Part shown: positions 34,213 through 50,647 of the stretch, piece by piece
Position numbering within the stretch: the first letter of the stretch is position 1
Layout: each line of letters opens with the position of its first letter
NCBI GenBank assembly: GCA_965205275.1
Contig: OZ242168.1
Location: 756,068-820,067, forward strand
Direction of reading: 5' to 3'
DNA length: 64,000 nucleotides
DNA from: Gammaproteobacteria bacterium
Lineage (GTDB): Bacteria > Pseudomonadota > Gammaproteobacteria > UBA4575
The notes under the pieces: model-generated
Databases searched by the model: none
The model's input: only the letters and a program-made list of their open reading frames with translations
Told to the model about the DNA's origin: nothing
Made by a program: the position numbers and the translations under genes

Positions 34213-37200
34213 CTACACAGAATCAGGATCCGAAGAAAAAACCCACTCTCGCCATCCGCCTAAAAGCGGAAAGTAAAGGCCCAGCCGAATCGGGCTTCCT
34301 TCCATTTTACTCATGATGCTTGCATAACGCTCCAGTTGTCCACGGTAGCGTTTCTGTTCCTGGTCCAGAAACTCATCAAGCTTGCCGGTATGGGTACTTG
34401 CCTTGTAATCAATGATCCAGCGTATACCTTGTTTATCCACGAATGTCCGATCGATGACTATGTGGTCTATACAGCCGTTGCCTCGACCACTCAGCGCCAG
34501 TTCGCAACTTGCTTTCTCGTGTGCTCCGCTCAAAACCCACCGGCCCCGCTCATCTTCCAGCGTCGCCTTCAGGGCTTTACGCACCTCTGCGACCGCGACC
34601 TCAAGGTAGCCCTTGGGGACTGTCATGCGTATCAGCATCTTGCGACCGATCTGCTCGAAACGAAGCAACTCGCCTGAGTCGAAATGCTCAATACCGATTG
34701 CCCCGATATGCTGAAGCAGTCGATGCACAACCGTGCCCACACACCTTGCCGTCTCTCCTGCCCAGTCAAACTTGATCACCTCACGCCCCTGCGTATCCTC
34801 CTTCACCGCAACGTCAGGGAGTTGAACCGGCTCCGGGGGAACTGGCAATGACCATTCCAGTGCCAGCCGGGTCCGCACGGGAGTATCGGCTGCTGGCCTG
34901 GCCCCATCTTCCAATGACGACACGCTATTGTCCGGCTGCCTGGTAAAATAGCCTTCACGGAAAGACTCAAAGTCCTTCGGCATGGCCCCTGAACCCAAGC
35001 GTTCAGGAGAGGGCCTGTCAAACTGACCCCTGCGCCACTGGGCCCAACCGGCTTCCACCGCAGACCACAGTCGTGCCAACAGGGAACTCTCCAGCGGGCT
35101 CTTCAGTTCATTGCCATGCTCCTGAATACCAGCATACCCAAAAAGATGCAGCCGTCGCTTGGCCCGGGTCGCAGCCACGTACAGCAAGCGACCCTCTTCA
35201 AAGCGTTCTTTTATTTTATTCAGGTACTGCAGGCATGTCGCGACCGAACCTTTATCTTCACCGTATGCACTGACCGGGGCAAGAAGAAGGTCACTGCCCC
35301 CTGACTCACAACCATACTCCAGCCAGTACAGCAGTTTTTCGTTATCCTGTCGCGGGAGGCGTGATAACCCGGGCAGGAGCACCGTATCGAACTCAAGTCC
35401 TTTCGCTTTATGGATCGTCATCAACTGAACGGAACCGTCTGCCTCGGCATCCGGCAGGGCAAACAACTGTTCAACCTGTTTACCAAAATCGTGAATGTCC
35501 GGCACATCCCCTTCACTGCCAAGTTCTTCAAGCCGCTGAAAAAATACTTCTCCGTTCTCAAGGTCCATACTCGTCACACAGGCCGGGCCACCCAGTGTGA
35601 CCCATACGCCCTCAACGTTGCTTCGAAGAGGGCGACGCGCCTGCTCTGACAGCGCCGTATTCAGTACCGGTAATACCCGGGCGATACGGACTTGACCCTC
35701 GTCGCTCAGTTGCTTGATACGTGGCTCCTCGCGGAGCAGATCGATAATTGTCCGATCCAAGGCGTCTCCTGCCAGGGTGTAGAGGTCTGCAAGCGTCAAC
35801 CCGCAATACGGTGCACGAAGCACCGCCAGCCACGCAATACGGTCATGGACATGACTCAATGCCCGGGTCAGTGCCATCAGATCCTGAATAACTGGACGAT
35901 GTGACAGCCGCTCAATTTCCACAGCCTGAAACCGGAGTCCGGCATGCTTGAGTTGCCCCGCGATTTCCACCAGATGGGAGCGGGCCCGAACAAGAATTGC
36001 GATTGTATTGTCCGGATGCTCTGCCCGGGTCTGCTCCACAATCGACACGACCTCGCGCGCCTCTGAAATGTCATCACGTTCGAGTGACGGGTATACCGTA
36101 ACGGCACCTGTGGCCAGTGGCGGGTGAAAGGATGTCGATTCTGCATAGGATACGGCACCCGTGTTGACGTTATCCTGTTCCGCCAGTACCTTTGGGAAAT
36201 GCTCGTTGATCCAGTCAACAATCCCCTGCTGTGAACGGAAATTGACGGAGAGACGGAGAGGCTTAAGCCGGATCTGGCCAATTCCGTGTTCTTTCGTAGC
36301 GAGAAACAGCCCGACTTCCGCTTCCCGGAACCGATAAATGGACTGCATGGGGTCCCCGACCACGAACAGGGTATGACCATCCTTCGGATGCCAGCCTGCC
36401 GTCAACCGCCTGAGCAATTCGTACTGACTGAGCGAGGTGTCCTGAAACTCATCCACCAGCAAGTGCTGTATACGGTAGTCCAGTGCCAATGCAAGGTCTG
36501 TGGGGGCTTCCGGCTCGCCCAGGGCCGTGATGGCTGCCCCGACCAGGGCCGTGAAATCCACCTGTCCCCGTTTACTGAACACAAGTTCCAGATGCGCCGA
36601 AGCAATGCGTAACACTTGGACCAGGGCCTGCAGGGTCTCCCAGTCATCATCGTCATACCGGTGGTCGGGCAACTTTCGTAACAGGATCAGTTGTTCGTGT
36701 AAGGCACCCTCGTTTTCCAGCAACTGCACGAATGTCGCCATGTCTTCCTTCATCGCTTCGAAATATGCCTTTTCAGCCTTGTCACAGCCGCTGCTCTTCG
36801 GCGGAAACCCCTGCTTTTTTGTCCAGGCCCTGCGCCAGGAACCACCCTGGGTCAACAACAACTCCGCAAGCCCTTCCCACTGCCTGCGGTCTTTCAACTG
36901 TGATCCCGGCAGGTTTTCAAGATTGCAGCAACAGCCCATGGCAGAATCTTCTCCCGGCGGCAAATGCCTGGCAGCGAAGCGGGCCATGCGGATCAGTTCC
37001 GGAACCCGCTTGCGAGGGAAGCGCCTGGCCAGTTCACCCAATGCATCCGTAACCAGACGCGCCATCGCCGCTTCAAGCTTTTTCCGCTCCAGTTTCGGGT
37101 CATTCGGATCTGCGATGTGGCGCAACCATTGATCCCGATAGCCAAGCATGGTTGAAATCAGGGCCTGCAGCCGGTCCAGCCGGTTATCCAGACGTTGCAC

Positions 37201-37731
37201 CAGGTGCGCGACAGAATCCGACCACCCGGCTCCTGATTCCAGTTCTGAAATGATATTTCTCGCTGCCTCACGATAAAGCAGCTCAGCATCTTCGGTAATA
37301 GCCGGCAGCGAGCCAAATCCGGACAGTACGGGCATCTGGCGTGCCAGGGCCACACAGAGGGAGTCAATGGTCTGGATACGAAGACGCCCCGGATTGTCAA
37401 GCAACTGCCAGCCCTTCTCGGTATCATGATCGAGTGCCTGACGGGCGAGCTTCCAGGTGTGACGTTCGTGCCCGTCCTCGGGAATCTCCTCACTCCTGGC
37501 AGACTCCAGGGCCTGCAAGATCCGCTGGCGCATTTCGCCGGCCGCCTTGCGGGTAAAAGTGATTGCTACAATCTCCTCCGGTGCTTCAACGCCTGCAAGA
37601 AGCACAAGAAGGCGCTGCATCAGCAATCCGGTTTTCCCGGAGCCTGCCGGTGCCTGTACGATGAATGATGAGGACGGGTCCAGCGCATGTGCGCGGGCCT
37701 TCTGATCGGCAATTCCTTTCTGTCTGCTCAT
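34213..37731 (-). CDS. addA: ATP-dependent helicase/nuclease AddA-like (UvrD/Rep-family SF1A helicase with C-terminal RecB nuclease)
   Basis: 1172 aa. Walker A APAGSGKTG at the N-terminus, UvrD-type motifs. C-terminal PD-(D/E)xK nuclease (...IDHIVID...WIIDYKAS...). Follows addB with overlapping stop/start. Confidence 0.75.
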   Translation of the reverse strand: MSRQKGIADQKARAHALDPSSSFIVQAPAGSGKTGLLMQRLLVLLAGVEAPEEIVAITFTRKAAGEMRQRILQALESARSEEIPEDGHERHTWKLARQALDHDTEKGWQLLDNPGRLRIQTIDSLCVALARQMPVLSGFGSLPAITEDAELLYREAARNIISELESGAGWSDSVAHLVQRLDNRLDRLQALISTMLGYRDQWLRHIADPNDPKLERKKLEAAMARLVTDALGELARRFPRKRVPELIRMARFAARHLPPGEDSAMGCCCNLENLPGSQLKDRRQWEGLAELLLTQGGSWRRAWTKKQGFPPKSSGCDKAEKAYFEAMKEDMATFVQLLENEGALHEQLILLRKLPDHRYDDDDWETLQALVQVLRIASAHLELVFSKRGQVDFTALVGAAITALGEPEAPTDLALALDYRIQHLLVDEFQDTSLSQYELLRRLTAGWHPKDGHTLFVVGDPMQSIYRFREAEVGLFLATKEHGIGQIRLKPLRLSVNFRSQQGIVDWINEHFPKVLAEQDNVNTGAVSYAESTSFHPPLATGAVTVYPSLERDDISEAREVVSIVEQTRAEHPDNTIAILVRARSHLVEIAGQLKHAGLRFQAVEIERLSHRPVIQDLMALTRALSHVHDRIAWLAVLRAPYCGLTLADLYTLAGDALDRTIIDLLREEPRIKQLSDEGQVRIARVLPVLNTALSEQARRPLRSNVEGVWVTLGGPACVTSMDLENGEVFFQRLEELGSEGDVPDIHDFGKQVEQLFALPDAEADGSVQLMTIHKAKGLEFDTVLLPGLSRLPRQDNEKLLYWLEYGCESGGSDLLLAPVSAYGEDKGSVATCLQYLNKIKERFEEGRLLYVAATRAKRRLHLFGYAGIQEHGNELKSPLESSLLARLWSAVEAGWAQWRRGQFDRPSPERLGSGAMPKDFESFREGYFTRQPDNSVSSLEDGARPAADTPVRTRLALEWSLPVPPEPVQLPDVAVKEDTQGREVIKFDWAGETARCVGTVVHRLLQHIGAIGIEHFDSGELLRFEQIGRKMLIRMTVPKGYLEVAVAEVRKALKATLEDERGRWVLSGAHEKASCELALSGRGNGCIDHIVIDRTFVDKQGIRWIIDYKASTHTGKLDEFLDQEQKRYRGQLERYASIMSKMEGSPIRLGLYFPLLGGWREWVFSSDPDSV

Positions 37732-40487
37732 GACCGACCCGTATCACCGGACTCGCTGTCCGGTACGTTCAATTCGCTGATGCGGCACAACGGCTTGAGA
37801 TCGCAGTGCGTACAGGTAGCCGGATAGCGCTTCGGATCAACCCGCGCATCCCCGTTGCGGTAAGCCTCGCCCAGCCCTTCCATGGTGGCACGCCAGTCGA
37901 GCAATACCTCCGGCCAGGAGCCTGCTTCGCGCGCCTCACGCAGCTTCTCCCAGGGCTTCACGCCTGCCACCAGTGTCTCGTTCTCAACGACGCCCCGAAA
38001 TCCCATATCACCTGCCTTCACTTGCGCAAACAGCAGGCCGGCAACCTCCCCATCCACCGCCAGGCTGTAGAGCGGCAATTGTGGCTCGTCCGGGCGCTTC
38101 CCAAACCACTGACTGGCCCTGACCTGCCCGGTCTTGTAATCAATAACCATCCGGCGACCGTCAGCCAGTTCGTCAATGCGATCAATTTTTAATCGAACCC
38201 GAACTCCTCCGGCCGTTGCCTCATGCCTTCCCTCCCGCTCGACAACCCGGAACGGCGCACGCTTTTTCTCCTGCTCCAGCCATTCAAGTACTTGCCGGCA
38301 CAGGCGCGCGGCCTCCATCTCCCGGAAGCCCCTGGTGAAGCTTCGGGGGTGCCTTTTGGTCATCTCATCGATCGTCTCGTCTACCGTGCTGCGCACCAAA
38401 GCCTTCAGTGCAGTGGCTTCCATGGCAATGAGTTGCTCGCTCGAGTCCAGTACACCCCATACTTTCTCAAGGATACGGTGCACCAGTAACCCGCGGGTCA
38501 TGGCATTCAGTCCGATATCTGCCTGCCGCAATGCACGCGCACCCAGCCGAAGTTCTGCAAAAGCACGAAAAGGACAGGCTGCCTGGAGCTTGAAGACAGC
38601 GCTCCCGCCCTTTGCCTGTTCATCTTCCAGGGGGGGAGCCGGATCTTCCTCCAATGTGATTAATCTGGCACTCCCGTGCACTGCATCCCGCCAGACTGGA
38701 ACTGGCCACAGCCGCAGGGCTTCAGGACCTGCAACCGGAAGGTGGACAACCAGAGGGCTGGGCCGCAGTTCCTCATCTCCACTGCGTTGCGGGTAACTCA
38801 CCACCACCTCGCAGGCACTTGCCAGCATCCGGCCGGTGACGGCCTGTGCAGCCTGAAGTTCCAGTGCTTCACTTGAATGCGGCAATCCGGCCTCCCGCTG
38901 TACTGGTAGCGGGATAAACGGGTTGGGTCGCGGGGACGCTGGCCAGATACCGTCATGAAGACCCATGGCCCACAGGCAATCAAACTGGAACCAGCTGGCC
39001 TGGAGCGTTCCCAGCACCTGCACCGGTACCGCCCCGGTCTGTGGCTGGAACATTCGTTCCCCGGCCATGCGCCGAAGCTGGTTCAGTGCAGTGGATGCGT
39101 GCATCGGTTTTGCCACCGGTTCCAGAGAGGCAAAACCAACCAGAAGTTCCCGCCATGCCTCTGCGCTCTGGTACTCCTCGCTTGACAGGGGACGCCCCTT
39201 TGCCCATCCGATTGCCGCCAGTAACCCTGCAAACCGTTCCGACCACTGTCCCGGACTGTCGGTACGCGGGCAATCCCAGGCAGCCCTGGCCCAGACGTCA
39301 AGATGCGCCACCAGCACCGGGCATGACCAGGCTCTGTCAGTTCGGGATGCATGGTAGCGCAATGTCTTGAACTCCACATCCAGCTCGCCTGCTTCGCGCA
39401 ATCGCCCATCCAGCAGTGCCCGGGCACTGGCTTCCTGCTCCCATCCGGCAATAAACGGTGAACACAGCAATCGGCCCGCATCTTCCAGGCTGATGACCGG
39501 TTCCAGCAATCCGAGCAGCCTCAATGCGGTGCTTACAACAGGATACCGGCTCAACGGCAGGCCAAGCGAGAGATTGTAGGGCCGTGTGACGGACTGAAAC
39601 CCCGGTTGCATGGCCTGAGGCACCAGGATCTCATCCAGCGCATGAACCACGAGGTCCCGCTTTGCTGCGAACTCCGGAACCACGACACCTACCTTCGTGG
39701 CGGGATTTTCTTCAAGCCGCTGGCGTACCCATCGGGCCATGTCTCTGGCTTCCTGACGTACATCCGTGCACGCAATCCTCATTGTCTGACTTTCCCTGCC
39801 TGCAGGTCGCATCCAGCGTACCCTGCAACCTGACTCGACCAGCGTTTGCAACAGAGACTGCTGTTGGGGCGCCAGTTCATCGAAACCAATCAATACGAGT
39901 TCTGCCGGCACAGCCAATGCCCCGGCCTGCGCACTGCACTGAAGTTCGTCTGCAAGACGGGCGACAGGCAGCCAGCCCTTCTCCCTGCACCGGGCCTCGA
40001 ATCCTGATGCCCATTTAAAAAATGCTGCACTGTCCCGGTTGTACCGGAATATCTCTTTGGTCAATGACAACTGCCACGACTGTACCCATTGCCATGCCTC
40101 CTGCGCCTGGTGCACCGTTCCCGCTACCTGCTGCAATGGCTGCTCCGCCATGCTCTCAATAATGATGTCTTCCCATATACGCTGCTCCTGCTGGGGTGTC
40201 AGCAAGAGTTCAGGTGGTGCAGCGGCACCCGAAACCACGGCCTCTTCCCAGACACTTTGCAGCCAGGCAGACCAGGGTAATACACGCGGGGTTGGCCAGA
40301 CTTCAAGTCCCTCACCAACCGCCGCCTGTTCAAACGCCTGACGCGTGACCGCCGCCAGACGTTTGTTTCCGGTAACAACGGTTGCCCCGCGGTTCAGGGC
40401 ATCAAATACATCCTTCAAAGAAGCTGTCTGCTGTCCAACCACACCTACCCCCTGTCCCAGTATTTTTTCCGTATCATGACCGCTCAC
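37728..40487 (-). CDS. addB: AddB-like helicase-nuclease subunit (proteobacterial type)
   Basis: 919 aa. C-terminal RecB-like nuclease (...RIDRIDEL...MVIDYKTGQ...) plus a Cys cluster (CTHCDLKPLC) typical of the AddB Fe-S domain. Immediately upstream of addA. Confidence 0.7.
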   Translation of the reverse strand: MSGHDTEKILGQGVGVVGQQTASLKDVFDALNRGATVVTGNKRLAAVTRQAFEQAAVGEGLEVWPTPRVLPWSAWLQSVWEEAVVSGAAAPPELLLTPQQEQRIWEDIIIESMAEQPLQQVAGTVHQAQEAWQWVQSWQLSLTKEIFRYNRDSAAFFKWASGFEARCREKGWLPVARLADELQCSAQAGALAVPAELVLIGFDELAPQQQSLLQTLVESGCRVRWMRPAGRESQTMRIACTDVRQEARDMARWVRQRLEENPATKVGVVVPEFAAKRDLVVHALDEILVPQAMQPGFQSVTRPYNLSLGLPLSRYPVVSTALRLLGLLEPVISLEDAGRLLCSPFIAGWEQEASARALLDGRLREAGELDVEFKTLRYHASRTDRAWSCPVLVAHLDVWARAAWDCPRTDSPGQWSERFAGLLAAIGWAKGRPLSSEEYQSAEAWRELLVGFASLEPVAKPMHASTALNQLRRMAGERMFQPQTGAVPVQVLGTLQASWFQFDCLWAMGLHDGIWPASPRPNPFIPLPVQREAGLPHSSEALELQAAQAVTGRMLASACEVVVSYPQRSGDEELRPSPLVVHLPVAGPEALRLWPVPVWRDAVHGSARLITLEEDPAPPLEDEQAKGGSAVFKLQAACPFRAFAELRLGARALRQADIGLNAMTRGLLVHRILEKVWGVLDSSEQLIAMEATALKALVRSTVDETIDEMTKRHPRSFTRGFREMEAARLCRQVLEWLEQEKKRAPFRVVEREGRHEATAGGVRVRLKIDRIDELADGRRMVIDYKTGQVRASQWFGKRPDEPQLPLYSLAVDGEVAGLLFAQVKAGDMGFRGVVENETLVAGVKPWEKLREAREAGSWPEVLLDWRATMEGLGEAYRNGDARVDPKRYPATCTHCDLKPLCRISELNVPDSESGDTGRS

Positions 40488-40851: not shown

Positions 40852-41325
40852 CTACTCGTGCATTTGCTCCTGCAGATAGTTCTGAATTCCAACTTTATCA
40901 ACGAGCTCAAGCTGGGTTTCCAGCCAGTCAATATGTTCTTCCTCGGATTCAAGGATGTCCTCGAAAAGCTCACGGCTCACAAAATCATTGATGGATTCCG
41001 AATAGGAGATGGATTCCCGAAGGGTCGGTATCGCTTCCATTTCCAGTTTCAGGTCGCACTCCAGCATTTCCTTCGGATTTTCGCCTACGTAAAGTTTTCC
41101 GATGTCCTGTAAGTTTGGCAGCCCTTCGAGGAACAGAATTCGCTCAATCAGCTTGTCGGCATGTTTCATCTCGTCAATGGATTCGGAGTGCTCATGCTCG
41201 GCAATGCGGTGCAAACCCTGGTCCCTGTACATCTTGGCATGAAGGAAATACTGGTTGATCGCCGTCAATTCGTTCTTCAGCACACGGTTCAGGCAGGCGA
41301 TTATTTCTGTGTTCTCTGGCTGCAT
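40852..41325 (-). CDS. bfr: bacterioferritin
   Basis: Ferritin-like di-iron residues in the ...ELTAINQYFLHAKMY... and ...EHEHSESIDEM... regions. Start placed at the internal Met (MQPENTEII); the ORF track extends to 41415. Confidence 0.8.
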   Translation of the reverse strand: MQPENTEIIACLNRVLKNELTAINQYFLHAKMYRDQGLHRIAEHEHSESIDEMKHADKLIERILFLEGLPNLQDIGKLYVGENPKEMLECDLKLEMEAIPTLRESISYSESINDFVSRELFEDILESEEEHIDWLETQLELVDKVGIQNYLQEQMHE

Positions 41326-41435
41326 TGGATTCTTGATGTTTTCAAAGTTTACGTACTTATAATTATACATGAAGCAAAAGTGGATATACAGGACTGGACT
41401 GCTGCTGTGCCGCACTGCTGCTCACCTGCAATATC

Positions 41436-41481
41436 GGTAATGAGAATTACTATTGTTCGTGGTTGTAATTAACAATCATTC
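41436..41481. promoter_or_regulatory. possible Fur-box-like AT-rich repeats in the bfr/bfd divergent promoter region
   Basis: taatgagaattactattg and gtaattaacaatcattcg each match about 12-13 of 19 positions of GATAATGATAATCATTATC. Not verified. Confidence 0.25.
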
Positions 41482-41501
41482 GTGTTTATAATTCATGCAC
41501 G

Positions 41502-41720
41502 ATGTACGTCTGTTTATGTCATGCAGTGAAAGAAGCCGAGATTATCGCAGCAGTCGCGGACGGCTGTGATACGCTTGAAGCCCTTGGCAAAACCCTTAGG
41601 GTAGGAACCAGCTGCGGAATCTGCCGCTCCGAGGCACAGTCGATTATAGACTCTACTCTAGAATACAGCCTTAAAGATATGAATATACTGGAGTTTCATT
41701 CCAAAAGCGTAGCCGCTTAA
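41502..41720 (+). CDS. bfd: bacterioferritin-associated ferredoxin (2Fe-2S)
   Basis: 72 aa. CLCHAV...GTSCGIC cysteine pattern typical of Bfd. Confidence 0.8.
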   Translation: MYVCLCHAVKEAEIIAAVADGCDTLEALGKTLRVGTSCGICRSEAQSIIDSTLEYSLKDMNILEFHSKSVAA

Positions 41721-41919
41721 GCGCTAGCCTGACCTGACAAACCCCTTTCGCTCTCATCATTGAAGCCATAGAACCGCCCGGAAACACGGACGGATAAAAC
41801 CCCGTCGCCAGGCCCCCTGACTTGTTAACGTAATATGTGCTTGCCTTGATTGATGGGCTGGATCTGTATCATGCTACCCTCCCCCAGGATCTCAGCTGTT
41901 TTCAGATAGAATTTAAATC

Positions 41920-44900
41920 ATGCAACGACTCGAAAACGGCCAATACCTGTACGCGCCATCGGACCTGGTTACCTTCCTCGAGTGCCCTCATGCCAGCTTC
42001 CTAGATATCAAAAGCCTGACCGAAAGGCTGGAAAAGAAAAAGGCAACCGCTACCCAGCAGTTATTGCGACAAAAAGGCTTGGAACACGAAGGCCGTTACC
42101 TGCAAGGCCTGAAGGATGCAGGGAAAAATGTCAGGGAAATTCCTGCAAACAGAAGCCTGGAAGAGCGTGTCGAATTGACGGTTGAGGCCATGTATGCCGG
42201 TGCAGAGGTCATCTATCAGGCGGTTTTTCTAAAGGAACCCTGGTGCGGCTATGCAGATTTTTTACTCAAATGTGATACGCCATCATCGCTGGGTCCTTAC
42301 AGCTATGAGGTACTGGATACCAAACTGGCCCAGACGGCCAGACCCAAGCATATCGTACAGCTGTGTGCATACTCTGAACTGCTGACCGGGGCACAGGGTG
42401 TGCACCCGACAACCATGCATTTGTTTTCAGGAGCCGGAAAGCAGCACAGCTTCAGGGTTTCCGATTTCTTTTCCTACTACGCCCGCGCCAGGCAACGCTT
42501 CGAAGACTATGTCCGGAATCTTCCCGCAGACCCCTATCCTGAACCCTGCACTCATTGTAATTTTTGCGCATGGCAGGATCACTGCACGGCCTGCTGGGAG
42601 GCGGACAACCATTTAAGCCTGGTTGCCAACATCCGGCGCTTCCAGGTGGACAAGCTCCACAAGGCCGGGATCGGGACCGTCGCACAACTGGCCGTAACCG
42701 CTCCCGATCGGGAAATTCCTGACCTGAACCGCGATGTCTTCTCTCGCCTTCGTTCACAGGCCGTGCTGCAGACAGGCAAGGCACAAACGGGCGAGAGCAG
42801 ATTCGAGATCGTCCCGTGTTCTGCCGACAGGGGGTTTGCACGCATGCCTGTGCCGGATGAAGGCGATCTGTTTTTCGATATGGAAGGCGACCCTTTGTAT
42901 CCGAACGGTCTGGAATATCTGTTCGGGGTGCATTACATGCTCGACGAGAAGAAGACTTTCAGGCCGTTCTGGGCGCACAGCCACGAGGAAGAAAAAGGGG
43001 CCTTCAAACGCTTTATGGGGTTCCTGGCCGATCGTCTGGCGAAATACCCGCATGCCCATATCTACCACTACAACCATTATGAAACGACGGCTCTGAAACG
43101 CCTGGCCTGTCGTTATGCGGTATGCGAAGAACAACTGGATACCCTGCTTCGGGCGCAAAAATTTGTTGATCTGTATCAGGTTGTGCGCGAGTGCATCCGC
43201 ACATCCGAGCCCGGCTATTCAATCAAGAACCTTGAAACCTTCTATATGGACAAGCGGGAAAATACGGTGGCTACGGCAGCCGACAGCATCATTGTTTACA
43301 ACCAGTGGCGTGAAACCGGCGAGGATACGTTGTTGCAGGGAATCGTTGAGTATAATGAAATGGATTGCATCTCAACCCGTCTGCTGCGTAACTGGCTCCT
43401 GGAACTGAAACCCGATGGCATACCGTGGTTCAAGGGTTTGCCTGAATACGGAGAAACAGAAGAGCCGCAGCGCAAAGACTGGGAAGTCAGCTACGAAGAC
43501 TATCAAAATCGCCTTGACGTGCAGCAAGATGAATCACCCACTATTCGTGAGCGGCTTTTACATCTTCTGGAGTTTCATAACCGTGAAGCAAAACCCCGGT
43601 GGTGGAGCAGCTTTGAACGGCAAAACAAATTCGAGAATGAACTGATAGACGATACCGAGTGTCTCGGGGGGCTGCGGCAAATCGGACGCCCGGAAACTGA
43701 AGAGCGCTCTCTCATCTATACCTTTGCATTCCCGCCACAGGAGTACAAGTTAAGAGTCGGAAACCCTGTAGTCAATGTTACCGGGATGGAAGCCGCGGGT
43801 ACGATTGTCGAGCTGGATGAAGACCTCTGTACTGTCAGAATCCGGCGCAGTGCAGACAAAGGGCCGCTGCCGGCGTGCTTTTCTGCGGGCCCGTCCGGGC
43901 CGATCAACAGCCGGGGAATCCGCTCTGCCATTTACCGTTATGCCGACCATGTCATTCAAAGACCCGGCGAAACCCATGCGGCCACCGAGCTTCTGGGCCG
44001 CCGCCTGCCACGTATTCACGGCAAGGCGGCCGGTGAACCCATCGTTACCTCACAAGACGTACAGGCCGGGATGCTGCAAGCCGTTGCAGGCCTGGACCGC
44101 AGCTACCTGTTCATTCAAGGCCCGCCCGGCTCAGGCAAGACCTATGCCAGCAGCCACGTCATTGTTGAACTGCTCAAGCGCGGCAAGAGAATCGGCATTA
44201 CCTCCAACTCCCACAAGGCTATTCACAACCTGCTGAAACGCGTGGTGAACGTGGCCGCTGAGAAAAATGTGCGTTTTCAGGGTGTGAAGAAGGCTACCCG
44301 CGGCACCGATGAAACTTTCTTTGACGGGCAGTTCATCCGGAACGAAACCCGTACAGAGAACATCAACCTTGATGCCGACCTGCTTGCAGGTACGGCATGG
44401 CTGTTCTCCCATGCGTATCTGCAAGGGCAGCTTGATTACCTGTTCATTGATGAGGCCGGACAGGTTTCGACCGCCAATGTAGTCGCAATGGCAACATCGG
44501 CACGGAATATCATTCTGGTGGGTGATCAAATGCAACTTGGCCAGCCGGTCCAGGGTATACATCCAGGCGAAGCCGGGCTTTCGGTGCTGGAATTCCTGCT
44601 GGGCGAGCACTCGACTATTTCGCCCGAGCGCGGTATTTTCCTGGACCGGACGTACCGGCTAAGACCAAGTATCTGCCGCTTCATTTCCGATGCATTTTAC
44701 GATGGGCACCTGATGCCCCATGAAAGCACCTCGCTGCGAAGTCTGGACCTGCATGACACGGATTTGCCCAACGAAGGAATTGTCATGATTGCCGCCGAAC
44801 ATGAAAGCTGCTCTCAAAAGAGTGTCGAGGAAGGCGAAATCATCAAGACCAAATACCGGGAATTACTGGGCCAGCCTTTCCGGGACCGGGACGGCAGCAC

Positions 44901-45252
44901 ACGGCCAATCAGCAAAGACGACATTCTTGTGGTCACGCCTTATAACGTACAAGTGAATCACCTGCGCTCCGTGTTGCCAGAAAATGCCAGGGTCGCAACG
45001 GTCGACAAGTTCCAGGGACAGGAAGCTCCCATCGTGCTGATTTCCATGGTGACATCGAGTGCCGAAGATCTGCCCCGGAATGTCGAGTTCCTGTACAGCA
45101 AAAACCGCTTGAATGTAGCGATTTCCCGTGCCCAGTGCCTGGCGATAGTGGTTGCCAATCCAAAGCTGCTCGAAATCCCCTGCAAGACGATTGAGCAAAT
45201 GAAGCTGGCAAATACCTTCTGCCAGCTGGATGAGTACGCTACCTCTCTTTGA
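41920..45252 (+). CDS. fused Cas4/RecB-like Fe-S nuclease plus SF1B (Upf1/Dna2-like, AAA_11/AAA_12) helicase
   Basis: 1110 aa. N-terminus ...YAPSDLVTFLECPHASFL... and CTHCNFCAWQDHC (one N-terminal Cys plus a C-x2-C-x2-C-x5-C cluster) match the Cas4/AddB-type nuclease. C-terminal third has Walker A GPPGSGKT, DEAGQ, and ...VDKFQGQE...NRLNVAISRA... SF1B motifs. Confidence 0.7.
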   Translation: MQRLENGQYLYAPSDLVTFLECPHASFLDIKSLTERLEKKKATATQQLLRQKGLEHEGRYLQGLKDAGKNVREIPANRSLEERVELTVEAMYAGAEVIYQAVFLKEPWCGYADFLLKCDTPSSLGPYSYEVLDTKLAQTARPKHIVQLCAYSELLTGAQGVHPTTMHLFSGAGKQHSFRVSDFFSYYARARQRFEDYVRNLPADPYPEPCTHCNFCAWQDHCTACWEADNHLSLVANIRRFQVDKLHKAGIGTVAQLAVTAPDREIPDLNRDVFSRLRSQAVLQTGKAQTGESRFEIVPCSADRGFARMPVPDEGDLFFDMEGDPLYPNGLEYLFGVHYMLDEKKTFRPFWAHSHEEEKGAFKRFMGFLADRLAKYPHAHIYHYNHYETTALKRLACRYAVCEEQLDTLLRAQKFVDLYQVVRECIRTSEPGYSIKNLETFYMDKRENTVATAADSIIVYNQWRETGEDTLLQGIVEYNEMDCISTRLLRNWLLELKPDGIPWFKGLPEYGETEEPQRKDWEVSYEDYQNRLDVQQDESPTIRERLLHLLEFHNREAKPRWWSSFERQNKFENELIDDTECLGGLRQIGRPETEERSLIYTFAFPPQEYKLRVGNPVVNVTGMEAAGTIVELDEDLCTVRIRRSADKGPLPACFSAGPSGPINSRGIRSAIYRYADHVIQRPGETHAATELLGRRLPRIHGKAAGEPIVTSQDVQAGMLQAVAGLDRSYLFIQGPPGSGKTYASSHVIVELLKRGKRIGITSNSHKAIHNLLKRVVNVAAEKNVRFQGVKKATRGTDETFFDGQFIRNETRTENINLDADLLAGTAWLFSHAYLQGQLDYLFIDEAGQVSTANVVAMATSARNIILVGDQMQLGQPVQGIHPGEAGLSVLEFLLGEHSTISPERGIFLDRTYRLRPSICRFISDAFYDGHLMPHESTSLRSLDLHDTDLPNEGIVMIAAEHESCSQKSVEEGEIIKTKYRELLGQPFRDRDGSTRPISKDDILVVTPYNVQVNHLRSVLPENARVATVDKFQGQEAPIVLISMVTSSAEDLPRNVEFLYSKNRLNVAISRAQCLAIVVANPKLLEIPCKTIEQMKLANTFCQLDEYATSL

Positions 45253-45539
45253 TGATCCATTCGTATGAAAAAACGGATATGTTAAACTTGACATCCGGAC
45301 AGACCTGACGTGACCTGTCCCGGTCAGGCCACATTACTGCCACCTCAGCTGTCCTTACGCGTAAAACCGGTCAGACCACTTTATGCGGATTTCAGCCTCC
45401 AGCGGATGACAAAAAACCATTTTCGAGGCTGATGATGAATACTTTTTATGGCAGGATACTGTCAGGTGAGAAGATTTGCCGAAGTACACATGGGGTTGAT
45501 ACTCATACCAATCGCCGAAAAAAAGGATGAATTAGCAAA

Positions 45540-46220
45540 ATGAATAAGCTGCAAAGCTCTTTTGAGCTGTTATTAAGCCTGGGTGGGCCGGTCGTAATGG
45601 CCCTTTTAGTGTTTTCTGTTATTGGGACTGCAATAATTTTACTGAAAATCTGGCAGTTTTTAGCACTGCGCCTGGGATCGTCCAGGTTTGCGGAAACGGC
45701 CTTACAGGCGTGGCGCAAAAATGAACGGGAAAAAGCCATGGGCATCGTCAAGAACAGAAGCCATCCCGTTGCAAAAGTCCTGCACACGGCCTTTGTGCAA
45801 CGTCAAGCAACGCTGAAAATCTCCATGGAGAATGCACGGGAAGAAACCCTCCGTGTTGCCCGGGCACAACTTGAAAAACTCAGGAGTTATATGCGTATCC
45901 TGGAAGTCATTGCCGCATTAAGTCCCCTGCTCGGACTGCTGGGAACCGTGCTTGGCATGATCAAGGTTTTTCGTGAGCTGGAACTGGCGGGCAGCAAAGT
46001 GGACCCTTCTATCCTGTCCGGCGGGATCTGGGAGGCCTTGCTGACGACTGCCCTGGGTCTGTCCATCGCAATCCCTGCCGTGTTGATGGTGAATTATTTT
46101 GACCGCGTAATCGATCGGATCAGACACCGTATGGAAGATACGGCAACCCAGGTGTTTACCGGTGATGAATCATTACAAAAGATTCATGCCATTGAAGGCG
46201 GATCAGCCTCTGCGACCTGA
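45540..46220 (+). CDS. exbB: MotA/TolQ/ExbB family proton channel
   Basis: 226 aa. Three TM helices, conserved ...LGLLGTVLGMI... region. First gene of an exbB-exbD-exbD-tonB string. Confidence 0.8.
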   Translation: MNKLQSSFELLLSLGGPVVMALLVFSVIGTAIILLKIWQFLALRLGSSRFAETALQAWRKNEREKAMGIVKNRSHPVAKVLHTAFVQRQATLKISMENAREETLRVARAQLEKLRSYMRILEVIAALSPLLGLLGTVLGMIKVFRELELAGSKVDPSILSGGIWEALLTTALGLSIAIPAVLMVNYFDRVIDRIRHRMEDTATQVFTGDESLQKIHAIEGGSASAT

Positions 46221-46222
46221 CC

Positions 46223-46633
46223 ATGCAGATTGCTGCAGCTGAAAAAAAACATAATCTGATCAGCCTTACACCGCTTATCGATGTGGTGTTTATATTGCTG
46301 GTATTTTTTATGCTGATCACGGATTTTGCAAAGTTTTCCATCGTTACACTCAGCGTCGCTCAGGATGAAAATGCAGTCGACACAGAACAAACGAGTTCAA
46401 TTGTACATATATCAAGTAATGGAGAGCTGCGGTTTGATCAAAGGGAAATCAATTTTTCCCAATTGACGGGTCTGGTGAGCAATAAACTCGCTGAAAATGA
46501 AAAGCATATATTTTTCATTCGCCCGAATGATGAAACGCTCCTGCAGGATACGATTTTTGTGCTGGATGAACTGATACCTCTGGCCCCGAACAATATCTCG
46601 TTCCTGCGCGATCTGGCGGAAGATTCGCAATGA
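46223..46633 (+). CDS. exbD: ExbD/TolR family protein
   Basis: 136 aa. Single N-terminal TM (...LTPLIDVVFILLVFFM...). Confidence 0.8.
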   Translation: MQIAAAEKKHNLISLTPLIDVVFILLVFFMLITDFAKFSIVTLSVAQDENAVDTEQTSSIVHISSNGELRFDQREINFSQLTGLVSNKLAENEKHIFFIRPNDETLLQDTIFVLDELIPLAPNNISFLRDLAEDSQ

Positions 46634-47028
46634 CCCTTACGGATTCGACCAAGTCACAGGACTTCGAAAGTGTCCTGCCGCTGATCAACGTTATCTTTCT
46701 ATTGCTGATCTTTCTTGTTCTGGGCGGCATCTTTACAGAACCCGAACTGTTTGATGTGCATCTGCCTGAGTCAATCAGTGACAAACAGGCTGTGGATGAG
46801 CCGGTACAGATACTGCTCAGCAAAGAAGGTGAGCTTGCCTACGATGGAAAGGCAATTTCAGTAGAGCGATTCCAGCAACTGGCACAGCAGATCATATCGA
46901 ATAACCCGGAAGCATTTATTCAGATCAAGGCTGACCAGAAAGTTGCCATGCAAAACGTGTTTGAAATTATGGAGATTATCAAACGAACCGGGTATGAAAA
47001 CTTTCAACTGCTTACCCTGAAAATATAG
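46630..47028 (+). CDS. exbD: ExbD/TolR family protein (second copy)
   Basis: 132 aa. ...LPLINVIFLLLIFLVL... Start overlaps the preceding stop. Confidence 0.8.
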   Translation: MTLTDSTKSQDFESVLPLINVIFLLLIFLVLGGIFTEPELFDVHLPESISDKQAVDEPVQILLSKEGELAYDGKAISVERFQQLAQQIISNNPEAFIQIKADQKVAMQNVFEIMEIIKRTGYENFQLLTLKI

Positions 47029-47045
47029 CGGCTATACGTCAAAAA

Positions 47046-47813
47046 ATGGAAATCGGGATCAAGCACTGGTTTAGCGTACTAAGTCTGGCTGTACTTTTGC
47101 ATGTGTACGCAGCTTTGCATGTAAATCTCACTGGTTATTCAGCAGAATCCGTACATCTGTTCGATCAATACATAATTGATCTAACAACGCTTGCCCTGCC
47201 TCCAAAACAGATCAAGCTGGAACCTTTCGTACCCCCGGCACCCCAGGAAACCAGACCGCCTGAAACAAAGCCTGAACCTGAAGTCAAACCACCCAAACCG
47301 GAGCCTAAACCCAAACCTAAGCCTGAAAAACCTAAAGCCCGTGCACCTGAGGTTACACAACCGAAAGTCGTTGTACCCGAGTTTGAACAACCTGTTCAGG
47401 AAACACAGATCGAACCTGTGGAACCGTCACCGACACCACCGGCTCCTGCACAAGTACCGAGGACTGAAAAAGCGGCAAAAAATACTTCGGCTGCAGCCCC
47501 AAAACCGGGGGTTCAAGCTGCGAAAGCAGATTACGGATATTATCAATTGATACTGGACAGGCTTGAACGGTTGAAGAAGTATCCGTCACGTGCGCGCCGG
47601 CGTGGTGAGCAGGGAACGGTAGTCCTGTCCTTTACATTAAACAGGGATGGCAGCCTGAAGCATTATAAAATCAGGCAAAGTTCAGGCTCCAAAGCCCTGG
47701 ATATTGCGGTCAAGAAACTGATCAAACGTGCAACCCCTTTTCCGGCAGTGCCGGAAAATATCAGCACGGACAAGCTTGAATTGTCGGTACCCATCTCCTT
47801 TGCCCTGAACTGA
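47046..47813 (+). CDS. tonB: TonB energy transducer
   Basis: N-terminal TM helix, Pro/Lys/Glu-rich spacer (PEPEVKPPKPEPKPKPKPEKPK), C-terminal TonB domain (...RRGEQGTVVLSFTLNRDGS...). Confidence 0.85.
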   Translation: MEIGIKHWFSVLSLAVLLHVYAALHVNLTGYSAESVHLFDQYIIDLTTLALPPKQIKLEPFVPPAPQETRPPETKPEPEVKPPKPEPKPKPKPEKPKARAPEVTQPKVVVPEFEQPVQETQIEPVEPSPTPPAPAQVPRTEKAAKNTSAAAPKPGVQAAKADYGYYQLILDRLERLKKYPSRARRRGEQGTVVLSFTLNRDGSLKHYKIRQSSGSKALDIAVKKLIKRATPFPAVPENISTDKLELSVPISFALN

Positions 47814-47953
47814 AAAAGGTACGGGCCGCCTTCCACGATGCCGGACCCGGGCATCCGGACCCTAGGCAGCATGACTTGCAATCCTGTACAAACTCTTGGT
47901 CAGGGCAAATGCCCGCCTGTCTGATCACAGGAAAATGACAGACGGGGCCGGAA

Positions 47954-50647
47954 TCAGAACTGATACTCGAACGACGTGTAGTAAAACCCGCCGTTAAAGC
48001 CAAACGGTGCGGCACGACGGGAGTACGTGAATACCCCGTCCGAGTCGACGATCGTATTGCCCTCGGCATCCACAATCGTACCCGCGTTTGTGCCGCTGAT
48101 CTTGTCCTTGTCCGGTTCCACATCGAAGATATTATCGGCGCCCAGCTTGAATATGCCGGGGCCCAGCTCGTAGCTTAACTGAACATCCGTAATGAATTCA
48201 GCATCATAGGACTGTTTCTTGCTACCCTCCGTAATCCTGTATCGACCGTATCGTTGTACCGAAGCCGAGGCTGCAAACTTCCCAACCCTGTACAGGGCCG
48301 ACAAGGCTGCCCGACTCTTCGGCTGCCACTCCTCGATAATTGACCGCTCCAGCTCGCCAAATAGTGCCTCCGGAAGTCCTGCTGGCAAATTGACTGATTC
48401 GATTTCCGTGTCTGTCCACGATCCCAGCAGCTGCAGTGTCAGGTCCCCTTTTATGTTCATCGGAACCCCCCAGGTCATTACAATATCGGCACCCTCTGTC
48501 ACTGTGTCGGCACCGTTCATAAAAAACTGACCCTTTTCGACGCCTTGCACCGCTTCAAACGCATTGATTACAGATTGTGGAAGCATTTGCTCTGATGAGT
48601 TTGGATCCAACTGCGCACTGATGATGATTCGATCGTCCACCTCAATCCGGTAGAAGTCCGTAGTCAGCGAGAATGAAGGCGACGGCTGCCAGACAAAGCC
48701 ACCACTCCAGTTGACAGATTCCTCTTCCTCTAGTTCCGGGATACCAATGGCCCGGGCAATTTCACTGTCGTTGCGGAATGTTCCCACTTGGAATCCTACA
48801 GTAACATTCTCCTCGTTCACCCGGAACTGGGTACTGATATTGTTGAAGTAGAGCTGCTGCATGGAGGGTGCCCGGAATCCTGAACTGACCGAGGCGCGCA
48901 GGAAAAATGCATCGCTAAGCTCCAGCTTCGAGGCAATCTTGCCGTTGAGCGTATCGCCGAAATCGCTGTAATCCTCGTAGCGCAGCCCCAACCCTAGCTG
49001 AAACTGATCGTTCAACTGAATATCGGTATCAACATAAAATGACTTGGCATGCCGGGTTTCGTTGACTTCGTTGACTGGCTTGAATCCGGTGAAAACCTGG
49101 ATCCCGGCATCACCCCCGCCAGTTCCGTCATAATCCTCGTAGGAATACGGCTCCCCGGCCTTGATTTCGTAGCGGTCCCGTTTGTATTCGGCCCCCCAAG
49201 CGATATCGGCCCTTTTGTATGGCATTGTGAAATCCAGATTCACCGTGGTCAGGTCCAGGCTCAGCTCGCCTGCATCAGCACTGGTCTGCGTGGTCCCGGA
49301 AAAATCGACCCCTGGAAATTCAAATGGCGCCATATACTCGCCGGTGGGATTCAGCATCCTGTTTACCCAAGAGGCGTTATGTGAGTTGCGTATATCAAAT
49401 TCAAAATTGTTGCCCCCGTGGACGAGACTCAAATCGACCGTCAGCCCGCTCTCAAACTCGCGGCGAACCCCTGCACCGATTGAATAATCCTGGATAGTGG
49501 TGTCGATCAGTGGCAGAAAGCCATCAGGGTACACTGCACTCGATGGATCGTCATCCGCGTCATTAAATGCCCCGAGATAAGGATTGCGACTCTTCCGAGT
49601 CGCAGGCCGGTAAAAACCACCGCTCAGGTTGGTCGACCGGGAAAAATCAGCAAAGCCATACAACTCCCCCTGGTCACCCCAGACTGGCTGCACAAAATTC
49701 AGGGTCCCGATGACCTGCTCCTGCTCGGCATCCCCGATGCGGAAATTGCGTCGATCGAAATCCCGCTCCTTGTTGTTCGGGTCGCTGGTAATCGTTGTTA
49801 CGCCATCTTCACCCGTAAGTGTTTTGCTGCCAGCAGCATTCGTGCACACTCCAACCCGATCATCACTCGGGGCTAGGTCCTTACCCGGATCCGTCTCATC
49901 ACATTCAGTATCCGGATACTGAATGATACCGGTTTTCCCGGCCCGGTTAGTCCGGTCCCGTTCATTGTACTCAAGTGCCACGTGCAACACGCCGTCGTTG
50001 CCCAAGGCAAATCCCTTGTTGAAACCGATTGAACGACGCTCGCCGTCCCCTTTGTAGGTGGACCCATACAACCCCTTCAAGGCTCCCTCGTAGTCTTCCT
50101 TGAGAATAATATTGATGACCCCGGCAACGGCATCCGAGCCATACTGGGCCGAGGCACCGTCCCGCAGGATCTCTACCCGCTCGATCGCACTCACCGGAAT
50201 GGCATTCATGTCCGTGCCGGCCGTGCCCCGACCGACCGAGGTGTTTACATGGATCAGCGCGCTTCCATGGCGTCGCTTGCCATTGACCAGCACCAGTACC
50301 TGGTCAGGCCCCATCCCCCGCAAGGTCGCCGGGCGCACTGAATCGGTCCCGTCACTTATCGACGAATTCGAAAAGTTGAATGAGGGGATGATGGCCTGAA
50401 TCGCCTTTCCCAGTTCACTCTGCCCGGTTCGCAGCAGTTCTTCCCCGCTTACCACGTCCACCGGAACGGGGGAATCGGCAACACTGCGCTCTCCAAACCG
50501 GCTGCCGACCACGACAATCTCACCGAGTTGGACAACCTCCTGGCCCTGCACCATCATTGCAGCCAGTAAAAGAACCAGGGTGATAGCAGCCCGGCTCCAG
50601 AAACAGGCGGCAAAAAAATTCTTTTCTATTCTCATGACTTCCCCCAT
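47954..50647 (-). CDS. TonB-dependent outer-membrane receptor
   Basis: 897 aa. Signal peptide, plug-domain motifs, beta-barrel with C-terminal ...YTSFEYQF. Confidence 0.85.
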   Translation of the reverse strand: MGEVMRIEKNFFAACFWSRAAITLVLLLAAMMVQGQEVVQLGEIVVVGSRFGERSVADSPVPVDVVSGEELLRTGQSELGKAIQAIIPSFNFSNSSISDGTDSVRPATLRGMGPDQVLVLVNGKRRHGSALIHVNTSVGRGTAGTDMNAIPVSAIERVEILRDGASAQYGSDAVAGVINIILKEDYEGALKGLYGSTYKGDGERRSIGFNKGFALGNDGVLHVALEYNERDRTNRAGKTGIIQYPDTECDETDPGKDLAPSDDRVGVCTNAAGSKTLTGEDGVTTITSDPNNKERDFDRRNFRIGDAEQEQVIGTLNFVQPVWGDQGELYGFADFSRSTNLSGGFYRPATRKSRNPYLGAFNDADDDPSSAVYPDGFLPLIDTTIQDYSIGAGVRREFESGLTVDLSLVHGGNNFEFDIRNSHNASWVNRMLNPTGEYMAPFEFPGVDFSGTTQTSADAGELSLDLTTVNLDFTMPYKRADIAWGAEYKRDRYEIKAGEPYSYEDYDGTGGGDAGIQVFTGFKPVNEVNETRHAKSFYVDTDIQLNDQFQLGLGLRYEDYSDFGDTLNGKIASKLELSDAFFLRASVSSGFRAPSMQQLYFNNISTQFRVNEENVTVGFQVGTFRNDSEIARAIGIPELEEEESVNWSGGFVWQPSPSFSLTTDFYRIEVDDRIIISAQLDPNSSEQMLPQSVINAFEAVQGVEKGQFFMNGADTVTEGADIVMTWGVPMNIKGDLTLQLLGSWTDTEIESVNLPAGLPEALFGELERSIIEEWQPKSRAALSALYRVGKFAASASVQRYGRYRITEGSKKQSYDAEFITDVQLSYELGPGIFKLGADNIFDVEPDKDKISGTNAGTIVDAEGNTIVDSDGVFTYSRRAAPFGFNGGFYYTSFEYQF

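Follow-up and report, generated by a model that had tools for sequence, protein, structure and literature searches.

A gammaproteobacterial member of the TM0106/COG2251 family that joins a nuclease, an exonuclease and a superfamily 1B helicase in one chain, with a possible role in the destruction of foreign DNA

What kind of protein is specified by the 1110-amino-acid open reading frame (ORF) at 41920-45252 of the window, and what might it do for the cells that carry it? The window, by which we mean the whole stretch of 64,000 nucleotides that was analysed, comes from contig OZ242168.1 (positions 756,068 to 820,067) of a gammaproteobacterium of the GTDB lineage UBA4575 (assembly GCA_965205275.1). 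The first-pass annotation had described the product as a Cas4/AddB-type iron-sulphur (Fe-S) nuclease fused to a superfamily 1B (SF1B) helicase of the Upf1/Dna2 type. The ORF and all of the motifs quoted on that occasion are present in the translation: LECPH at residues 20-24 (with Cys22), C210-x2-C213-x2-C216-x5-C222, GPPGSGKT at 734-741, DEAGQ at 844-848, VDKFQGQE at 1028-1035 and NRLNVAISRA at 1062-1071. An identical set of Pfam domains recurs in more than 100 full-length homologues (57-97% identity), which argues that the ORF is a real gene and not a chance reading frame. By its sequence the product is a full, intact member of the TM0106/COG2251 (TIGR03491) family and not an unclassified protein. 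As an explanation of the whole, we give an even chance to the idea that this intact family member is a self-loading degrader of DNA ends that works with both polarities, the restriction of foreign DNA being its most likely task.

The assignment to the family rests on a match to the NCBIfam model TIGR03491, "TM0106 family RecB-like putative nuclease" (COG2251), that reaches 300.6 bits against a cutoff of 97.45, extends over residues 14-493 and takes in positions 4-462 of the 462 in the model. The Pfam model RNase_H_2 (PF13482) is covered in its entirety (residues 317-493, E = 2.8e-33), and AAA_11, AAA_12 (E = 9e-30) and AAA_30 match within the C-terminal 400 amino acids. All of the tested features of TM0106/COG2251 proteins are therefore present, namely a Cas4-like (DUF83) PD-(D/E)XK nuclease, then a PF13482 exonuclease and then AAA_11/AAA_12. 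Because TIGR03491 and PF13482 both match there, most of the central stretch of roughly 450 amino acids, in which the first-pass annotation had recognised no motif, is a third catalytic domain. The single chain carries three enzymes, an Fe-S nuclease, a DEDDy exonuclease and an SF1B helicase, in a fixed order (Table 1).

Conservation of the active sites was judged in 27 close homologues and in 79 species-representative sequences, at 37-71% identity, from many phyla (Proteobacteria, Actinomycetota, Chloroflexota, Cyanobacteria, Eremiobacterota and others). The Cas4/AddB cysteine signature proposed earlier holds for C22, C213, C216 and C222, which are found family-wide (76-77 of the 79 sequences), and does not hold for C210, which is present in only 53. 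Since C210 is lineage-specific, the cysteine pattern of the family is the canonical four-cysteine iron staple of AddB, Cas4 and Dna2. The RecB motif residues of the nuclease, D113, E130 (or D), D133-x-K135 and Q147-x3-Y151, are kept in 68-79 sequences, and those of the exonuclease, D320-x-E322, H383, Y387-E388, D417 and Y478-N479-x2-D482, in 78 or 79. The exonuclease is of the DEDDy type because a tyrosine stands at position 478, four residues ahead of the last aspartate, an arrangement that is also that of polymerase proofreading domains. In the helicase, K740, D844-E845, Q872, R913, Q1032, R1063 and R1070 are found in all 79 sequences, and the motif residues overall are invariant with few exceptions. 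Thus, the catalytic residues of both nuclease and helicase are present and conserved throughout the set. Conservation extends to the stalk, with the motif LLEFHxREAKPxWW at residues 549-562, and to the linker between the two nucleases, where the residues of L246...G250-I/V-x-T253...L257-A258 are kept in 65-75 of the sequences. From this pattern we infer that the linker motif may be helix-hairpin-helix (HhH)-like, which would favour DNA as the substrate. (Note that no Pfam match backs the HhH-like label.)

The AlphaFold2 (AF2) model of the protein (27 homologues; mean predicted local distance difference test score 84.9, predicted template-modelling score 0.76) is made up of the nuclease (residues 1-230), a helical linker (240-290), an RNase H fold (317-496), a disordered segment (508-518), a stalk (520-577), a beta-barrel (582-658) and two RecA domains (729-1085). 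When the whole model was compared with the PDB by Foldseek, Dna2 came top (5ean, E = 3e-26) in a full-length alignment with a template-modelling score of only about 0.35, and so the domain arrangement of Dna2 is not superposable on that of the model. Dna2 was followed by IGHMBP2, Upf1, ZNFX1, Sen1 and nidovirus nsp13, and the alignments to the helicase cores of IGHMBP2 and Upf1, at about 620-680 columns, reach beyond the two RecA domains. In phmmer searches of the PDB the best matches were to IGHMBP2 (1.4e-20, 75.7 bits) and Upf1 (7e-20, 73.4 bits), with Dna2 at 1.8e-12 (48.9 bits, helicase part only). Pfam, phmmer and Foldseek agree, as the first-pass annotation had it, on a C-terminal SF1B helicase of the Upf1/Dna2 clade. 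For the exonuclease domain the nearest folds are those of DNA-polymerase proofreading domains and of MrfB. Searches of PDB sequences with the exonuclease region, with the nuclease region and with an 11-sequence N-terminal profile gave no meaningful match, and thus the kinships of the two nucleases are visible at the fold level only. These comparisons show that the three catalytic modules are intact and conserved, with folds that match those of DNA enzymes.

Given this architecture, we considered whether the protein might belong to the Nhi family or be directly orthologous to the Dna2 of eukaryotes. Like Dna2, it has, in this order, an Fe-S PD-(D/E)XK nuclease and an SF1B helicase of the Upf1 clade that includes a stalk and a beta-barrel, and the Dna2-like architecture claimed earlier stands in so far as Dna2 is the best full-length structural match. 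What that claim had missed is the third enzyme: the conserved DEDDy exonuclease has no counterpart in Dna2. Moreover, the likeness in sequence to Dna2 is limited to the helicase and is weaker there than the likeness to IGHMBP2 and Upf1, no sequence-level match to the Dna2 nuclease came out of the PDB searches, and Dna2 is universal and essential in eukaryotes whereas the TM0106 family is sporadic and mobile. As for Nhi, the likeness to single-protein immunity factors of this type did not survive comparison with the PADLOC Nhi model, which reached only E = 0.009 and only over the P-loop region (residues 727-785). Direct orthology to Dna2, or membership of Nhi, is therefore largely refuted, and we consider either to be extremely improbable.

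Other candidates were rejected in turn. The protein is not a CRISPR Cas4, as the Cas4 models fell below their cutoffs (TIGR00372, 21.2 bits against 65; PF01930, 13.3 against 22.7) and a PADLOC scan of the window ORFs found no Cas proteins. The strongest PADLOC matches were to MkoA and MkoC of Mokosh (E = 4e-46 and 1e-30); they are confined to residues 818-1101, the C-terminal half of the helicase, and the protein has no PLD domain. It is not a component of AddAB or RecBCD, since its helicase is SF1B and Upf1-like and since the opposite strand, 1.4 kb away, has complete genes of its own for AddA and AddB. AddAB, RecBCD and AdnAB are heteromeric, with superfamily 1A (UvrD-like) motors and with nucleases that are both PD-(D/E)XK, whereas the window protein is an SF1B enzyme in one chain. 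(A "Cas4-like nuclease" that limits RSF1010 in S. elongatus (PMC10653904) was not used as evidence, its locus tag and architecture not having been established; a later paper describes ACE1, the partner of a cyanobacterial pAgo, as an enzyme of the Cas4 family, and in it we found no DEDD exonuclease domain mentioned.)

The architecture itself is already catalogued. In the classification of the RNase H-like superfamily by Majorek et al. 2014 (PMC3985635), COG2251/PF13482 is family F.13 and stands near the PolB exonuclease clusters; the authors presumed a 3'-5' exonuclease activity for COG2251 and described its architecture as a DUF83/Cas4-like domain and PF13482, frequently followed by tandem AAA domains. 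Structurally the window protein is the same as the rest of the family and differs from it in nothing. The earlier interpretation as a whole is partly supported, and the protein is a new member of a named but experimentally untouched family.

The closest characterised relative in design is Bad of Geobacillus stearothermophilus (PMC7430649), a monomeric DNA2-like Fe-S nuclease fused to an SF1B helicase that moves 5'-3', requires a single-stranded DNA (ssDNA) tail with a free 5' end, forms loops of ssDNA and cuts the strand in front of it. Like Bad, the window protein has in one chain an iron-staple nuclease at the N-terminus, some 500 amino acids of central region and an SF1B helicase at the C-terminus, and the motif III aspartate and the Walker A lysine stand about as far apart in the two (D150 and K815 in Bad; D133 and K740 in the window protein). 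(This comparison was made with the published description of Bad, WP_053413574.) Unlike the central domain of Bad, in which, as reported, no homology to any known domain could be detected, that of the window protein matches PF13482 and has its DEDDy residues intact. Nor does the type III-like methyltransferase that adjoins Bad, and to which a link with Bad was suggested, adjoin the window copy. By analogy, the measured properties of Bad may be taken as the best available model for those of the window protein.

Two further comparisons concern the nucleases. MrfB (YprB), a mitomycin-C repair exonuclease of B. subtilis, is a DEDDh enzyme and a separate protein whose partner MrfA is a superfamily 2 (SF2) 3'-5' helicase, whereas the exonuclease of the window protein is DEDDy (Y478) and is fused to both an SF1B helicase and a Cas4-like nuclease. 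DUF2779 (PF11074), the sibling family F.17 of Majorek et al. (PMC3985635), was described in a 2026 analysis of JCVI-syn3.0 (PMC13621843) as the fusion of a Cas4-like nuclease with an MrfB-like DEDD nuclease in which His is changed to Tyr. It shares with the window protein this two-nuclease module, in the same order and with tyrosine in place of histidine; it lacks the helicase, and its member MMSYN1_0389 retains two of the four Fe-S cysteines. Giant viruses (CroV, klosneuviruses, Megaviridae) likewise encode a fused two-nuclease module: the BFVD matches E3T4R0 (CroV), A0A3G4ZWN9, A0A5K0U8I2, A0A3G5AGZ9 and A0A5J6VIM9, of 470-890 amino acids, align to the Cas4-like and PolB-type exonuclease module over 540-790 columns with E down to 3e-17. 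Tailed phages in BFVD match the stand-alone PD-(D/E)XK nuclease only.

How might the three enzymes act together? SF1B motors translocate 5'-3' on single strands, nucleases of the Cas4/AddB/Dna2 type act on ssDNA, typically on the 5'-ended strand, and DEDDy proofreading exonucleases remove nucleotides from 3' ends. We envisage that the 3'-5' exonuclease, on meeting a DNA end or a fork, would resect the 3'-ended strand and so leave a 5' single-stranded tail, and that this tail would thread past the Cas4-like Fe-S nuclease into the SF1B motor. The motor would then move 5'-3' with adenosine triphosphate, unwinding the duplex, while the Fe-S nuclease cut the tracked strand and the exonuclease went on trimming the displaced 3' strand. 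A 5' tail made by the protein itself would solve the loading problem of Bad and Dna2, which are unable to start on blunt DNA, and the window protein would be a one-chain counterpart of the two-nuclease AddAB with a motor of opposite polarity. A similar logic has been described for type III Druantia, in which 5' overhangs produced by the 3' exonuclease DruH allow the helicase-nuclease DruE to load and then to degrade forked or ended DNA (10.64898/2026.05.13.724313). The analogy is one of mechanism only, since DruH and DruE are two separate proteins of unrelated families and DruE is an SF2, YprA-like enzyme.

The same modules could in principle serve a helicase-nuclease directed at RNA, with the motor tracking RNA and the DEDD exonuclease degrading RNA 3' ends, for example those of phage transcripts or in R-loops. 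By sequence the helicase is indeed nearest to IGHMBP2 and Upf1 and not to Dna2, the strongest PADLOC matches are to Mokosh MkoA and MkoC, there are many RNases among the DEDD-fold exonucleases (such as RNase D, RNase T and ERI1), and McrBC relatives paired with Upf1-like helicases are predicted to target RNA (PMC11090510). However, the MkoA and MkoC matches take in only the C-terminal half of the helicase, the folds nearest to the exonuclease are those of DNA-polymerase proofreading domains and MrfB, the Cas4, AddB and Dna2 nucleases are DNA enzymes (PMC5704561), the linker has an HhH-like motif, and Bad and Dna2, of the same helicase clade, are DNA motors (PMC7430649). An RNA target is therefore improbable, and we return to the reading in which the protein degrades DNA from its ends.

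We next asked how the family is distributed. When one genome per species was scanned with a pattern, relatives appeared in at least 588 species representatives (at least 588 loci), of which the best 80, all essentially full-length, were used for a survey of neighbouring genes. The carriers among these 80 are Alpha-, Beta- and Gammaproteobacteria, including Legionella, Pseudomonas, Sphingomonas, Bradyrhizobium, Paracoccus and a Pelagibacter, together with Oligoflexales, Actinomycetota, Chloroflexota, Cyanobacteria, Gemmatimonadota, Ignavibacteria, Planctomycetota, Eremiobacterota and Binatia. Copies from Chloroflexota, Cyanobacteria and Planctomycetota are 51-54% identical to the window protein, as against 46-47% for those of Pseudomonas and Sphingomonas, and this ranking, out of step with taxonomy, points to horizontal transfer. 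With the N-terminal 500 amino acids as query, phmmer found 1,715 clusters at 50% identity (E <= 1e-30), and most of those listed are about 1100-1200 amino acids long. A tblastn search of plasmids found 77 carriers, with at least 59 full-length copies and 26 plasmids predicted to be conjugative; the genes are annotated with the family name only, a name that genome homologues bear as well. Two copies occur on separate contigs of Sedimentimonas flavescens (L030/L032). A copy 67% identical to the window protein lies on a contig labelled Oscillospiraceae bacterium (L052), and such a copy in a contig binned as a Firmicute implies either recent transfer or contamination of the bin. Two close relatives, in a cluster at >=90% identity (P0273, P0274, P0275), have copies split by frameshifts: on one 1.88-Mb contig the gene is divided into P0275 (residues 1-559 with an out-of-frame tail) and P0274 (residues 623-1110), and another genome has a fragment of residues 366-705 with an out-of-frame tail. 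The split copies may be either real pseudogenes or assembly indels; unless they are assembly errors, they hint that the gene is dispensable.

Neither uniform presence nor a conserved repair neighbourhood was found for the family, which is sporadic and lies in varied contexts. Synteny with the window is gone at 71%, 66% and 59% identity, where the context is wholly different: copper-resistance genes and MerR; an MmeI-like type IIG restriction-modification (RM) enzyme and Fic; and ThsB-TIR and AbiEii. No neighbour is common to all 80 loci, and the gene is also found standing alone in many different contexts. The commonest neighbour, at 15 of the 80, is an HTH-WYL-WCX regulator, mostly the first gene upstream and divergent; McrB and McrC come next, at 6-7 loci. 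Two genes on either side of the family gene were then compared in bulk with PADLOC, for 40 loci and then for the other 36. Among the first 40, restriction enzymes of types I, II and III were strongly matched, and so were HmaB/HmaC (at L034), Azaca ZacB/ZacC (ZacC with E = 0 at L040), Shango SngC, Wadjet JetD, a defence dGTPase (3 members), PD-T4-1 and WYL (8 members). Type I HsdR (E = 0) lies just upstream of the family gene and co-directional with it in Legionella brunensis, and type III Res (E = 4e-223) lies immediately upstream at L028. As a PADLOC scan of the other 60 ORFs in the window gave generic cross-hits only (for example, AddA to GajB/UvrD models and a cysteine desulfurase to DndA/SspA), the defence enrichment elsewhere looks real but heterogeneous. 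On plasmids the family gene is found with VapBC, integrase, HNH and SNF2 genes, with a Bil-like E1/E2/multiubiquitin cluster and Fic, or with dynamin-family, WYL and HD genes.

Some of these loci have further features of their own. In L. brunensis (L002 4249-11315) and a Tatlockia sp. (L003 113-5563), hsdR and an ORF of 174-219 amino acids precede the family gene without gaps and in the same direction. The small ORF has no Pfam match in either of these Legionellaceae, and the arrangement may be an operon that links the family gene to a type I RM system. On plasmid pA of Phenylobacterium (L086 3609-6034) a Bil-type cluster (multiubiquitin/E2/ThiF-E1/DUF6527) and a gene for a ClpP-like SDH protease lie directly upstream of the family gene, both co-directional with it. 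A protein of roughly 230 amino acids without a Pfam match (L035 5323-6015) recurs within three genes of the family gene at six loci (L035, L025, L032, L039, L044 and L050), in varying positions, and at L044 is accompanied by WYL, McrBC and an SbcD-like phosphoesterase.

In the window itself the gene has an ordinary setting. Its position between bfd and exbB is as the first-pass annotation described it (Table 1), and the order AddAB-bfr-bfd-X-exbB-exbD-exbD-tonB is preserved with the 86% and 76% homologues, that is, in three genomes including the window. Within this lineage its place on the chromosome has become fixed, and the window's own case is one of an ordinary, intact family member in a stable chromosomal position. 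The earlier description of the gene as monocistronic was not established: a scan found nothing like a terminator on the + strand in the interval from bfd to the gene and nothing like a promoter immediately 5' of it. Alignment with the region upstream of the 76% homologue revealed no conserved regulatory element, no small conserved partner gene was found abutting the ORF, and the guanine-plus-cytosine composition showed nothing anomalous that would mark a recent acquisition.

Table 1. Modules of the TM0106/COG2251-family protein and genes around it, with window coordinates.
Feature	Window position	Strand	Residues or remarks
Whole gene, TM0106/COG2251-family nuclease-exonuclease-helicase, 1110 amino acids	41920..45252	+	ATG start; ORF and translation
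Cas4/AddB/Dna2-type "iron-staple" PD-(D/E)XK nuclease (predicted)	41920..42609	+	Residues 1-230; C22, C213, C216, C222; RecB motifs
Helical linker with helix-hairpin-helix-like motif (predicted)	42610..42834	+	Residues 231-305; AF2 helices 240-248, 254-259, 271-290
PolB/MrfB-type DEDDy 3'-5' exonuclease, RNase H fold (predicted)	42868..43398	+	Residues 317-493; DEDDy key residues
Helical stalk (520-577), beta-barrel (582-658) and connecting helices (predicted)	43477..44079	+	Residues 520-720; AF2 models; 1B/1C-type domains of Upf1/Dna2-clade helicases
SF1B helicase motor, RecA1 and RecA2 (predicted)	44080..45174	+	Residues 721-1085; Pfam, PDB phmmer, motifs
Helicase motifs			I G734-T741 (K740); II D844-E845; III G868-D869..Q872; R913; V T1027-Q1034; VI R1063-R1070
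AddA	34213-37731	-	Neighbour of the gene
AddB	37728-40487	-	Neighbour; AddB start to start of the gene, 1.43 kb
Bacterioferritin	40852-41415	-	Neighbour of the gene
bfd	41502-41720	+	Directly precedes the gene
exbB	45540-46220	+	Downstream of the gene
exbB-exbD-exbD-tonB	45540-47813	+	Two exbD genes, then tonB
TonB-dependent receptor	47954-50647	-	After tonB

The surroundings of the gene form an iron-homeostasis neighbourhood (40852-50647), with bacterioferritin, bfd, exbB-exbD-exbD-tonB and the TonB-dependent receptor. By eye, the AT-rich sequence aatgagaattactattg in the divergent bfr/bfd intergenic region (about 41440-41480) resembles a Fur box, and a Fur-family regulator with an HHDH motif is encoded 40 kb from the gene (1456-1872, - strand). 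Further away, the part of the window between about 7 and 24 kb holds many insertion sequences, with transposase matches to HTH_Tnp_1 (four), rve (three), DDE_Tnp_1 (two) and Transposase_mut (one); two ORFs of 265 amino acids, at 7187-7984 and 19798-20595 (both on the - strand), are 100% identical, and 7172-7471 and 19783-20082 form an exact DNA repeat pair. A direct repeat of 182 nucleotides with 74% identity (29235-29416 and 29863-30044) lies within and just past an 819-amino-acid ORF (27429-29888, - strand). One window ORF, possibly this one, has a strong fibronectin type III match.

What, then, is the protein for? It probably shreds DNA from the ends, and the purpose is possibly to destroy invading DNA. 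Because the gene is mobile, plasmid-borne and found beside defence genes, we favour the restriction of foreign DNA (that of phages or plasmids, linear or replicating, or aberrant DNA), although we hold this with somewhat less than even confidence and regard the role as the least certain part of our account. A family protein may finish off the fragments left by adjacent RM or McrBC systems, or answer to a WYL sensor. Several points weigh against such a role. The idea of immunity is plausible from the context elsewhere, but the window copy lies outside any defence island, and the gene stands next to AddAB there and in the 86% and 76% homologues, as might be expected of a domesticated gene or of one that serves repair. 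Matches to defence genes were far fewer at the other 36 loci, mostly of soil Actinomycetota and Eremiobacterota (WYL, with 5 members, MADS and one methyltransferase), and the enrichment was set against a crude control, the window ORFs. WYL regulators include the DNA-damage regulators PafBC and DriD. A tblastn search of 50,697 phage genomes with the N-terminal 500 amino acids gave no match, and the PADLOC 2023 catalogue has no full-length model for the TM0106 nuclease-exonuclease-helicase. In the literature on TM0106 or COG2251 we found no paper with an experimental test of any member, and membership of the family therefore gives a name and not a function. Finally, that the exonuclease acts first and loading follows is purely what we infer.

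Some of these points would suit an accessory enzyme of DNA repair or replication, similar to Dna2 or MrfAB, that acts on 5' flaps, stalled or reversed forks, bulky adducts or crosslinks in the cell's own chromosome, the helicase unwinding and the two nucleases removing damaged strands whichever their polarity. Over the full length the best fold match is Dna2, and the gene lies close to AddAB with synteny kept in three genomes and no defence genes nearby. Elsewhere, RmuC (3 loci), an SbcD-like phosphoesterase, SMC_N/AAA_23 ATPases and RNase_T are among its neighbours, some of the WYL regulators may belong with DNA damage, as PafBC and DriD do, and the gene is kept in small marine genomes, including that of a Pelagibacter. 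MrfB likewise works with a helicase (PMC11194089; 10.1101/2025.09.15.676423), and the helicase-less sibling DUF2779 includes a quasi-essential gene of JCVI-syn3.0 (PMC13621843). Against this stand a sporadic distribution with clear horizontal transfer and carriage on conjugative plasmids, the loss of context beyond about 76% identity, the repeated location beside bona fide restriction and other defence systems, the frameshifted copies in close relatives and the presence of AddAB in the same genome. On balance a repair role appears less likely than not, though it is the serious rival and far more probable than an RNA target, and we continue to place the restriction of foreign DNA ahead of it.

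Being large, plasmid-borne, often found among defence genes and absent from PADLOC 2023, the family may reasonably be put forward as a candidate for a new defence or anti-plasmid factor encoded by a single gene. Going further, and only tentatively, we suggest that the TM0106/COG2251 protein might be a previously unrecognised single-gene immune effector against phages, plasmids or both, a self-loading end shredder that degrades both strands, is often switched on by a divergent WYL sensor-regulator or acts downstream of restriction or McrBC cuts, has spread horizontally through at least 10 phyla and onto plasmids, and has kin of its module in giant viruses. The interest of the protein lies in its being a well-defined target for testing a candidate defence or repair enzyme and not a discovery in itself. 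If the proposed mechanism is true, it would be the first characterised case in which a proofreading exonuclease, an Fe-S nuclease of the Cas4/Dna2 type and a 5'-3' SF1B motor are coupled in one chain, and a minimal single-polypeptide alternative to AddAB and RecBCD that creates its own loading site; it would also help to explain what bacterial DNA2-like enzymes such as Bad are for.

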